Source: Clostridiales bacterium | GTDB taxonomy: Bacteria; Bacillota; Clostridia; Monoglobales; JAIRYP01 | DNA: 64,000 nt | Reading direction: 5' to 3' | Assembly: GCA_031267755.1 (NCBI GenBank) | Contig: JAIRYP010000015.1 | Span: forward strand, 142,538-206,537 | In this document: positions 40,723 to 42,912 of the stretch, piece by piece | Numbering within the stretch: position 1 is the stretch's first letter | Layout: each line of letters starts with the position of its first letter | The notes under the pieces: generated by a model | What the model saw: the letters and a program-made list of their open reading frames with translations, nothing else | What the model was told of the DNA's origin: nothing | Databases searched by the model: none | Position numbers and translations under genes: made by a program

Positions 40723-42912
40723 ATGGCGGGAACGGGAGAAATATTTAATAAATATTATTTTTCACTGCAATATTTGTGTTTTAAAGAAATTCTTAAACCT
40801 ATTGGTGATAGTGTTGATGTTTCCCTGAGTTTTTATTTATCAGAAAGACGTGATGGTATCCTTTTTGAAGATTTAACAGAAGATTTTTTAGAGGGATTGT
40901 TTTTTGATTTGTTTATTAATCAAGAAACTTTTATGATGGATTATACATATTATAATCGCGGAACATTAATGGTTAGAGTTGTAAAGCTTACGGTAGATAT
41001 GGAAATTATTGATATTTTGTTGTCAAGGTTTGATTTTTGCGAAAGTTTTATCGAACGCGAAACTAGGGGCAATTTCGATCCAATGAATTTTCTTAAAGAA
41101 ATGGGAGTTGTTTCGATCAAGTATAAAAGCAGAGAACATTTTTTCTTTGAAGATTTTACAGAAGAATTTAAGTATACTTTTAGTAAATATGATTTTTTTA
41201 AAAGATATTTAGTGGAAAAAGAAGGTCCTAAATCATTTGAATTGGTATTTGAAGAAAAATATTTAAATGATTTTGTGGAAGAAGGAAGATTTAAACCACC
41301 AGAATATTTAAATGATTTTCATGTAAAAATCTTTAGATCATATTATAAAACTGACTCAGTATATTTTAAAATGAATGTGTATTCAAAAATTATTGTTAAT
41401 TTATTATTAGAAAAAACTTATTTTCAAATAACAAATAGTTCGTTATATCAAGTGACACAAAGGTCTAATTCCTTATATGTAAAATTATTGGAACCAAAAA
41501 TTATTTTAAAATTGATATCAGAAGTTCTCAAAGCTCAAAGAATGAGAATTAAAGACCCATTTAAATCTACGTTATGGGGGGGGGGAGAGTGCACTCCTTA
41601 CAAAATAATAGCTCAGGAACACTTATTTGATGCGATTTTAGAAAATGAATATAATGAAAAAAGTGAAGACCCATTTGAATCTACGTTAGAAGAATGGGAT
41701 CCTTATAAAATAAGAATTTCAGAATTACTGTTTGAGGTGACTTTAGAAAAGGACTTGCATAAAAAAAATGAAGGTATTGCAATATTATTTCAATTAATGT
41801 TAGAAGCACGCGATATTCAAAGACATCAGGGAATTCCAAAATCATTTCAATCGATGTTAGATGAATTTGATCCCCAAAGAATAAAAATTCCAGAATCGCT
41901 TTTTGAGGCTAAATTGAAAGAGTCTGTTGATTTGTTTAGATTTAAATCTTTTGAATATTATGAATCTGCAAGTCAAGGAGAAATTGGTAGGCATGAAACT
42001 AAAGAACAATGTCTTGAAAAAATAGAAGAAAATGTTGCTTTGTCGTTGAAGGAAATTAGAATTAGGTGTGAATTTGAATTAAGAAAAGCTTTTGGTCCTG
42101 ACTTAAGTTTGACATTAAAGTTTATAAAAACATTTGCTTTATCCCATTTACCGGAATCAATTTTTGAATCAAAATTAAAAAATGTTTTATTTATTCTTAG
42201 CGAAACGGAAGCAGAGTTGACCCTAAGCGCTTTATTTGTTCATGAATTTTTACAATCGATCACTAAACGTATATTTGATGACGAAAATTTTGTCAAAGGG
42301 TTGGAATTTTTAGATACACCTCAAGAATTAAGGTTATTAGAAACTGTTGGTACGGATATCAGTTCCGAACCGGTTGAACCGCTTGCCGAATTGTTAACAA
42401 AATTAACTATTATTCCGGACCAACGCGAGAGATGCATTGACGTTAAACGAGAGAAAAAGATTTTAGAATCCCCATCGCACATGAGACATTACGGAAAAAA
42501 AGATGATTTTTTTTATTTTTTTAGAAGAGAAATTGCAATTTCTGAATTAATGGGTGATTTGCTTAACATGTATTATAAAAGTAAGATTGTTGAACAATTA
42601 AATATTTTAACTTTTACAAAAATTGACTCCCCAGAAGAAATTTATGACAATGCTAATAATCGAAAAATTGAAACACATGTAGTGGGAGACGAAGATAATA
42701 TTTTTGATGAAGAAGAAAGAGAAATAGAAATAGAAGTTTCTCGCTTAGAACCTTATAGACCTAGCGAAGAATATGATGCAGAATATAGAACAAGAGCACA
42801 AAAAGATCTACTTTTAATGTTTCAACATGGATTAGGTCATGCGCAAGGTAGAAGAACATCATTTGAAAATTTTCTTTGTTCCAATCCACCGACAAAGTAC
42901 ATTCGTTTGTAA
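40723..42912 (+). CDS. hypothetical 729-aa repeat-containing protein (orphan)
   Basis: AGAGGTG RBS before ATG 40723. The central region has degenerate ~37-aa repeats and a G10 tract. No signal peptide and no known motif. Confidence 0.7.
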   Translation: MAGTGEIFNKYYFSLQYLCFKEILKPIGDSVDVSLSFYLSERRDGILFEDLTEDFLEGLFFDLFINQETFMMDYTYYNRGTLMVRVVKLTVDMEIIDILLSRFDFCESFIERETRGNFDPMNFLKEMGVVSIKYKSREHFFFEDFTEEFKYTFSKYDFFKRYLVEKEGPKSFELVFEEKYLNDFVEEGRFKPPEYLNDFHVKIFRSYYKTDSVYFKMNVYSKIIVNLLLEKTYFQITNSSLYQVTQRSNSLYVKLLEPKIILKLISEVLKAQRMRIKDPFKSTLWGGGECTPYKIIAQEHLFDAILENEYNEKSEDPFESTLEEWDPYKIRISELLFEVTLEKDLHKKNEGIAILFQLMLEARDIQRHQGIPKSFQSMLDEFDPQRIKIPESLFEAKLKESVDLFRFKSFEYYESASQGEIGRHETKEQCLEKIEENVALSLKEIRIRCEFELRKAFGPDLSLTLKFIKTFALSHLPESIFESKLKNVLFILSETEAELTLSALFVHEFLQSITKRIFDDENFVKGLEFLDTPQELRLLETVGTDISSEPVEPLAELLTKLTIIPDQRERCIDVKREKKILESPSHMRHYGKKDDFFYFFRREIAISELMGDLLNMYYKSKIVEQLNILTFTKIDSPEEIYDNANNRKIETHVVGDEDNIFDEEEREIEIEVSRLEPYRPSEEYDAEYRTRAQKDLLLMFQHGLGHAQGRRTSFENFLCSNPPTKYIRL
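41551..42183 (+). repeat. degenerate tandem coding repeats (~37 aa units)
   Basis: Units: KDPFKSTLWGGGECTPYKIIAQEHLFDAILE; EDPFESTLEEWDPYKIRISELLFEVTLE; IPKSFQSMLDEFDPQRIKIPESLFEAKLK; a distal copy LSHLPESIFESKLK. Confidence 0.7.
41576..41585 (+). repeat. G10 homopolymer inside the coding sequence
   Basis: Direct reading: ttatGGGGGGGGGGagag, encoding W-G-G-G. Confidence 0.9.

Follow-up and report, generated by a model that had tools for sequence, protein, structure and literature searches.

In a 64-kb window of an uncultured, gut-type Clostridiales bacterium (64,000 nt from a 240,496-bp contig of a metagenome-assembled genome, or MAG, labelled "Clostridiales bacterium"), a run of ten uninterrupted G on the plus strand (41576-41585) lies in frame within LBJ09_03845, an orphan open reading frame (ORF) encoding a hypothetical protein of 729 aa (MDR1392302.1; 40723-42912, plus strand, from the ORF list and the NCBI annotation). 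We lean, with some reserve, towards reading this G10 tract as a Campylobacter-type switch, presently ON, that slipped-strand frameshifts would turn ON and OFF. That the tract is a hypermutable on/off site can be inferred on good grounds; that the switching would be adaptive is a hypothesis. The mechanism is a known one, for which the gene is a credible candidate, and the lineage is unusual. Phase variation in Clostridia is known mainly from recombinase-driven DNA inversion, poly-G switching being best known in Campylobacter, Helicobacter, Neisseria and Haemophilus.

A sequence-only reading that preceded this analysis had placed the run at these positions inside the 729-aa ORF, and the run scan and reading-frame simulation confirm both its coordinates and its frame. 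The ORF can start at GTG 40714 or at ATG 40723, the latter being the choice of NCBI, and ends at 42912; the tract sits at 39% of its length, where the codons TGG GGG GGG GGA specify W285-G-G-G288. As simulated, G10 yields the 729-aa product, while translation ends after 294 aa with G9 or G12 and after 301-302 aa with G8 or G11; the truncation after about 290 aa expected earlier for a change of one G is accordingly located at 294 (G9) or 302 aa (G11). Regarding the base composition of the window (27.8% GC, with G at 17.2% and C at 10.6%), the earlier view that such a run is unexpected by chance in AT-rich DNA also stands, as a first-order Markov model predicts 0.0013 G runs of at least 10 and 0.044 of at least 8 per window. 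The other G/C runs of at least 6 are just a G8 (12947-12954) and two G6 (34656-34661 and 57527-57532); over the 64 kb, neither C runs of at least 6 nor other microsatellite-type repeats (di-, tetra- or pentanucleotide) were found.

The distribution of these runs over gene classes is far from even. All four G runs of at least 6 fall in Pfam-less or accessory ORFs, which make up 16% of the window, and the strictly Pfam-less ORFs alone hold both runs of at least 8 and three of the four of at least 6. From the run scan, one G6 (34656-34661, plus strand) lies in 34331-35383, an orphan ORF belonging to a trio of tandem paralogues, and the other (57527-57532, plus strand; TGG GGG GAA, W-G-E) in an accessory ORF with a UCH domain (56272-57759), both being under the usual switching threshold. 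G4 runs are spread roughly by length among the classes and none of the six G5 runs is in an orphan ORF, five being in conserved genes and one in intergenic DNA; the intergenic regions of the window, with a GC content of 13-26%, are free of long G or C runs. GGG is the rarest glycine codon (10%), and when the protein sequences were held fixed and synonymous codons redrawn, the orphan ORFs exceeded expectation at every threshold, with 4 G runs of at least 6 vs. 0.40 expected (P<0.0005), 2 of at least 8 vs. 0.013 (P<0.0005) and 1 of at least 10 vs. 0.011 (P about 0.01), so that the amino-acid sequence does not explain the tract. Under the same null model, conserved genes have no G run of at least 6 vs. 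1.3-1.4 expected, a deficit that is not significant. The enrichment in orphan genes that had been suggested for checking is thereby found within the 64-kb window. As a control in real genomes, 160 Firmicute-type loci fetched around folP (2.25 Mb) contained seven G/C runs of at least 8 and none of at least 10, their low-GC subset (GC below 33%, 529 kb) containing zero runs of at least 8. Besides, poly-G tracts are generally under-represented in prokaryotic coding genes (PMC2831843), which makes those of this window notable, and the indel variability of simple sequence repeats (SSRs) in prokaryotes climbs steeply with their length, the most mutable repeats being the most avoided, especially in the middle of genes (PMC3315296).

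The frame that G10 keeps open has the properties of a coding frame on both sides of the tract. Past the tract, 444 codons are open, which is not attributable to chance because off-frame stops hit 9-14% of codons in this genome. With a codon-usage model derived from the window's conserved genes, the log-likelihood per codon of frame 0 is +0.19 before the tract, vs. -0.31 and -0.51 in the two other frames, and +0.23 after it, vs. -0.40 and -0.51. The protein also contains three related internal units of about 28-38 aa, delineated by unit alignment, namely unit 1 (41554-41667, plus strand; DPFKSTL-WGGGECT-PYKIIAQEHLFDAILE...), which spans the tract in one frame, and the tract-free units 2 (41668-41751, plus strand; DPFESTL-EEWD-PYKIRISELLFEVTLEK) and 3 (41836-41922, plus strand; PKSFQSML-DEFD-PQRIKIPESLFEAKLKE). 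To the left and to the right of the tract alike, unit 1 can be aligned to units 2 and 3 without a change of frame; since it keeps one frame across the run, the ON state corresponds to the functional frame, and since the repeat is continuous there, a chimeric assembly join is excluded. In the MAFFT alignment of the three units, the run results from a 9-nt in-frame insertion, TGGGGGGGG (41575-41583, plus strand), relative to units 2 and 3, followed by a codon that is GGA in unit 1 and GAA or GAT in its sisters, i.e. one A-to-G change. The earlier statement that W-G-G-G occupies the position of EEW or DEF in sister units therefore needs amending: W-G-G-G is indeed encoded, but as an insertion plus a point change and not as a substitution of EEW, the sisters reading L-EEWD-PYK and L-DEFD-PQR where unit 1 reads L-WGG-GECT-PYK. 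Judged from this alignment, the G10 tract is a derived in-frame expansion that postdates the duplication of the units.

A second tract provides the opposite configuration. The G8 run (12947-12954, plus strand), identified by run scan and frame simulation, lies at the frameshift of an orphan gene, here gene A (12649-13183, plus strand), and is OFF as assembled; following its repeats and reading frames, gene A proceeds in frame 0 over 12649-13014 (LBJ09_03720, 121 aa) and then in frame +1 to 13180-13183. Its tandem paralogue B (13338-13781, plus strand, 147 aa), intact and without a G tract, is homologous to it at the 5' region with the start and at the C-terminus, the two genes having in common a 5' stretch of 155 nt including the start codon (88% identity) and a 3' end of 98 nt (84% identity). 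The part of gene A that matches the C-terminus of B is in frame +1, which is open over 12911-13180 (90 codons). In addition, a segment beginning with DDSER is duplicated within gene A (12708-12748 and 13009-13049) with a spacing of 301 nt, i.e. 1 modulo 3, which together with the open frame +1 places the frameshift between about 12911 and 12960, an interval in which G8 is the sole long homopolymer. The homology to paralogue B, the open frame +1 and the spacing of the duplicate thus all bear out the earlier claim that this tract falls exactly on a frameshift. With G7 or G10, both frames of gene A would be joined into a 176-aa protein. The 76 codons downstream of G8 are stop-free, for which the probability by chance is about 1e-4, so the shift is recent or reversible, and an old pseudogene can be ruled out for gene A. 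That LBJ09_03720 is annotated with 121 aa probably reflects a split or truncated call made from the dominant subpopulation. Gene A was a singleton in the protein search, with no homologue retrieved.

Gene A and paralogue B belong to a set of four small orphan ORFs (78, 121+, 147 and 78 aa) located between mnmG and thrS (12379-14206, plus strand), all of which start with M-A/S-G. The region of their ribosome-binding site and start is conserved and repeated three times (12347-12387, 13306-13346 and 13938-13978). The 729-aa ORF itself starts with MAGT, akin to the M-A/S-G of these small orphans.

As for the protein encoded across G10, some 15 billion proteins contain no second member of its kind, which makes it a strict singleton: the query alone came back both from a word-indexed search covering 5.8 billion clusters and from HMMER run exhaustively over 1.84 billion representatives. 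A tblastn search against phages and plasmids was empty, a scan of metagenomes with the same query gave no relative, and no match was obtained in Pfam, NCBIfam, PHROG, PADLOC or PDB. The protein is acidic (pI 5.0), has neither a predicted signal peptide nor a predicted transmembrane segment, and looks soluble from its sequence. Its single-sequence AlphaFold model has a mean pLDDT of 32, too low to be usable. The adjacent FolP has no match above 56% identity in the GTDB species representatives or in the metagenome collection, and no sister genome was therefore found in which tract lengths could be compared.

Poly-G tracts of at least 8 gain or lose units by slipped-strand mispairing during replication at rates orders of magnitude above ordinary mutation. 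Under the slipped-strand interpretation, the G10 tract would have expanded recently as an SSR inside a lineage-specific coding gene, and replication slippage would add G units to it or remove them. The population would then be a mixture in which G10 cells, as well as G7 and G13 cells, make the full 729-aa protein while G9 or G11 cells make an N-terminal fragment alone, of 294 or 302 aa, the change being presumably reversible. The G8 of gene A would represent a second example, in the opposite state (OFF) and with its downstream frame intact, and the lineage would possess, in orphan or accessory genes only, a modest repertoire of intragenic poly-G switches resembling that of Campylobacter. An effect on neighbouring genes is also conceivable: folP starts 24 nt past the stop of the 729-aa ORF and is followed by folB-folK, these 24 nt show no terminator-like site and Rho is encoded in the window, so that possible polarity on folP-folBK can be envisaged in the OFF state, which, speculatively, could lower their expression. 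Slippage at the tract, its reversibility and any adaptive benefit are inferences from sequence. A bolder proposition, about which we are rather doubtful, is that this uncultured spore-forming member of the Clostridia has evolved a genome-wide, Campylobacter-style set of intragenic poly-G switches stochastically toggling lineage-specific and possibly host-directed orphans, which would be the first poly-G phasome in that class, and that the one upstream of folP might also modulate folate-biosynthesis genes by polarity.

Among known systems, the closest is the phasome of Campylobacter jejuni and C. coli, where G/C runs of at least 7 serve as the cut-off for candidate phase-variable genes and for efficient slippage, 77% of the tracts fall within genes, the coding strand of these carrying G in 95% of cases and C in only 5%, the commonest tract lengths are 9-10 and hypothetical genes are frequent among the carriers; in strain NCTC 11168, every tract of at least 8 varies between isolates (PMC6321876). 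Both tracts of the window, each uninterrupted, are likewise of lengths 8 and 10 and with G on the coding strand, one being ON and the other OFF; the resemblance thus covers AT-richness (about 30% GC), intragenic coding-strand poly-G of 8-10, truncation by a one-G frameshift and mixed ON/OFF states, as well as the order of density, with 2 tracts of at least 8 in 64 kb here, where genome sequences of C. jejuni have a median of about 20. However, Campylobacter is an epsilonproteobacterium in which variation has been demonstrated, whereas here the case is a MAG of spore-forming Clostridia known from the sequence of a 64-kb sample, and the carrier is a soluble-looking orphan instead of a surface-modification gene. 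In the contingency loci of Neisseria and Haemophilus (PMC5084427), the length of an intragenic SSR similarly sets the frame, with stochastic and reversible ON/OFF states, but these loci are experimentally verified, involve tetranucleotide repeats besides homopolymers and encode adhesins, lipooligosaccharide glycosyltransferases, iron uptake or restriction-modification functions. Within the Firmicutes, Bacillus subtilis swrA and Listeria monocytogenes inlA, as cited in PMC2831843, are inactivated by frameshift at an in-gene poly(A) homopolymer; there, the function of the gene is known and the tract, A7-A9, is found at its very 5' end, in contrast to mid-gene poly-G here. The poly(A) frameshifts of Buchnera, as cited in PMC2831843 too, recall gene A by the AT-rich genome, the shift exactly at a homopolymer and the intact downstream frame, but the base is A and not G, and the present organism retains sporulation genes and is no extreme reduced endosymbiont. 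Mid-gene G/C homopolymers with reversible frameshifts in cytoplasmic proteins are found in glpK and ESX-1 genes of Mycobacterium tuberculosis (PMC10334774, PMC11898584) and as poly-G in Klebsiella rmpA (bioRxiv 10.1101/2025.09.12.675794), which means that such switches are not limited to surface genes or 5' ends; these cases differ by shorter tracts in GC-rich genomes or by well-characterised regulators, with recurrent change documented at population scale.

Several points weigh against a switch at G10. The basis is one consensus sequence from one MAG, and the sample amounts to two tracts of at least 8 in 64 kb of genome. The 729-aa protein, devoid of signal peptide, transmembrane segment and domain, seems to fall outside the classes usually concerned, i.e. 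surface, restriction-modification or glycosyltransferase genes, and the tract is at mid-gene (39%), away from the 5' end, the part of genes in which an enrichment of regulatory homopolymers is usual (PMC2831843, PMC3315296). Neither mutS nor mutL lies in the 64-kb window, which is uninformative on mismatch repair in this genome. The phase-variation claim of the sequence-only reading is in this respect upheld in part, namely for the length of the run, its placement within an ORF, the over-representation and the frameshift at G8, and weakened by a product seemingly outside the typical contingency class and by the mid-gene location.

The strongest alternative, which we consider possible but less probable, is poly-G arising by slippage in weakly constrained orphans where indels are tolerated, G10 being in frame by happenstance and gene A already a pseudogene, with mutable tracts but no selected switch. 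It fits tract-bearing genes that are orphans with no detectable homologue or domain, a tract that is a recent insertion in a repeat region tolerant of length change and sits in the middle of the gene, and a gene A that is frameshifted as assembled; moreover, the enrichment in orphan genes is expected from relaxed selection alone just as it is from switching and cannot separate the two ideas. It accounts less well for an intact 729-codon ORF in which codon usage is native before as well as after the tract, for the stop-free 76 codons after G8 (chance about 1e-4), which do not suit an old pseudogene, for the freedom of both tracts from interruptions, and for the lack of long G/C runs in intergenic DNA, the least constrained of all, though admittedly very poor in GC. 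Intact frames and tract purity favour a slipped-strand switch over neutral slippage only modestly.

Alternatively, the tracts could act mainly at the RNA level, through RNA-polymerase slippage or ribosomal frameshifting, giving a fixed mix of products from invariant DNA and rescuing gene A. Bacterial transcriptional slippage has been documented for A/T runs, G/C runs being less prone to it, and no stimulatory RNA structure flanks G10 (fold z = 0.43). The intact downstream frame of gene A despite its frameshift would suit this explanation, as would the precedent of Buchnera, where frameshifted genes with poly(A) tracts are rescued by polymerase slippage (cited in PMC2831843). RNA-level slippage is nonetheless compatible with slippage of the DNA, which is to be expected for G10 anyway, and as the main role of the tracts it appears improbable.

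Finally, it is improbable that the poly-G runs or their exact lengths are artefacts of sequencing or assembly (poly-G read tails of two-colour chemistry, homopolymer miscalls), even if the sequence is a MAG and a length miscall would explain why one tract of the two has lost its frame, since unit 1 continues through the tract in frame and aligned with units 2 and 3 on both sides, poly-G read tails should by their origin yield dead-end tips instead of 9 nt inserted internally, an artefact would not keep to a single gene class as these runs do, and 36 A/T runs of at least 8 (12 of them of at least 9) lie in intact Pfam-supported genes with no frameshift (addB carries four A9 runs on its coding strand yet is intact), so that homopolymer calling is good overall.

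If the tracts proved variable in length among reads, slipped-strand switching at poly-G would be extended to Clostridia; the orphan genes concerned would be flagged as under fluctuating selection, offering a way to prioritise "dark matter" genes in MAGs. If they proved invariant, they would be a mere compositional curiosity of fast-evolving genes. A caution for annotation follows, as tract-bearing genes may be called intact, truncated or split depending on the subpopulation that dominates the assembly.

Other roles for the G runs were considered and rejected. When the flanks of the four runs were aligned for a shared motif or the scar of a mobile element, nothing was conserved outside the run. 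A role of the tract on the minus strand, where it is a C run (antisense gene or promoter spacer), is not retained, with no minus-strand ORF at the tract and the nearest promoter-like match on that strand (41531-41503) excluding it. The Rfam scan of the window matched no RNA family at the tract, its only matches, together with those for tRNA, being a bacterial class A RNase P RNA (49791-50153, minus strand, 265.7 bits) and a tRNA-Met (17765-17840, plus strand).

Upstream of the 729-aa ORF, the best sigma-70-like promoter match (TTGAAA-18-TATAAT, 11/12; 40641-40670, plus strand) lies about 50 nt before the start codon; this is a consensus match only, the total number of such matches not being above that of shuffled sequences. 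It falls within a 744-bp non-coding spacer of 16% GC that separates the ORF from a Cro/C1-type helix-turn-helix gene (39616-39978, plus strand), which forms a phage-like divergent pair with a phrog_11237 gene (38929-39360, minus strand, E=3e-13); this pair may be the remnant of a mobile element. Farther upstream are the three tandem paralogous orphans (33155-36632, plus strand; 335, 350 and 361 aa, 27-30% mutual identity), with no match in Pfam, PHROG, PADLOC or NCBIfam, and a 641-aa orphan (36839-38764) that follows them and completes, with the 729-aa ORF, a lineage-specific block of about 10 kb between iPGM and folP. In this block, an intergenic direct repeat of 142 nt, 93% identical between its copies (34208-34349 and 36678-36819), occurs directly upstream of the orphan ORFs starting at 34331 and 36839; it has no Rfam match and may be a shared promoter or leader.

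Elsewhere in the window, sporulation genes are kept (spoIIIAF, AG and AH; dpaA and dpaB). Genes of host-interaction type in the neighbourhood of the 729-aa ORF comprise the deubiquitinase-like UCH ORF and a BspA-type leucine-rich repeat protein. The former, a 495-aa ORF (56272-57759, plus strand), matches Pfam UCH (PF00443, ubiquitin C-terminal hydrolase/USP domain) with E=2e-13 and 50.9 bits vs. a cutoff of 23.9, and this eukaryote-like deubiquitinase domain suggests a host-directed effector. The latter (684 aa; 60537-62591, plus strand) contains four stretches of the BspA-type leucine-rich repeat PF13306 (E=3e-60) and is rich in Lys and Glu in its C-terminal half; bacteria that live with a host typically have BspA-like proteins of this type. 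A 42-nt tandem duplication (63316-63399, 1.9 copies), scored at 100% by TRF over 63329-63408 and at 86% in a gapless comparison, lies in the unannotated end of the window (62592-64000), for which no ORF of at least 60 aa was listed.

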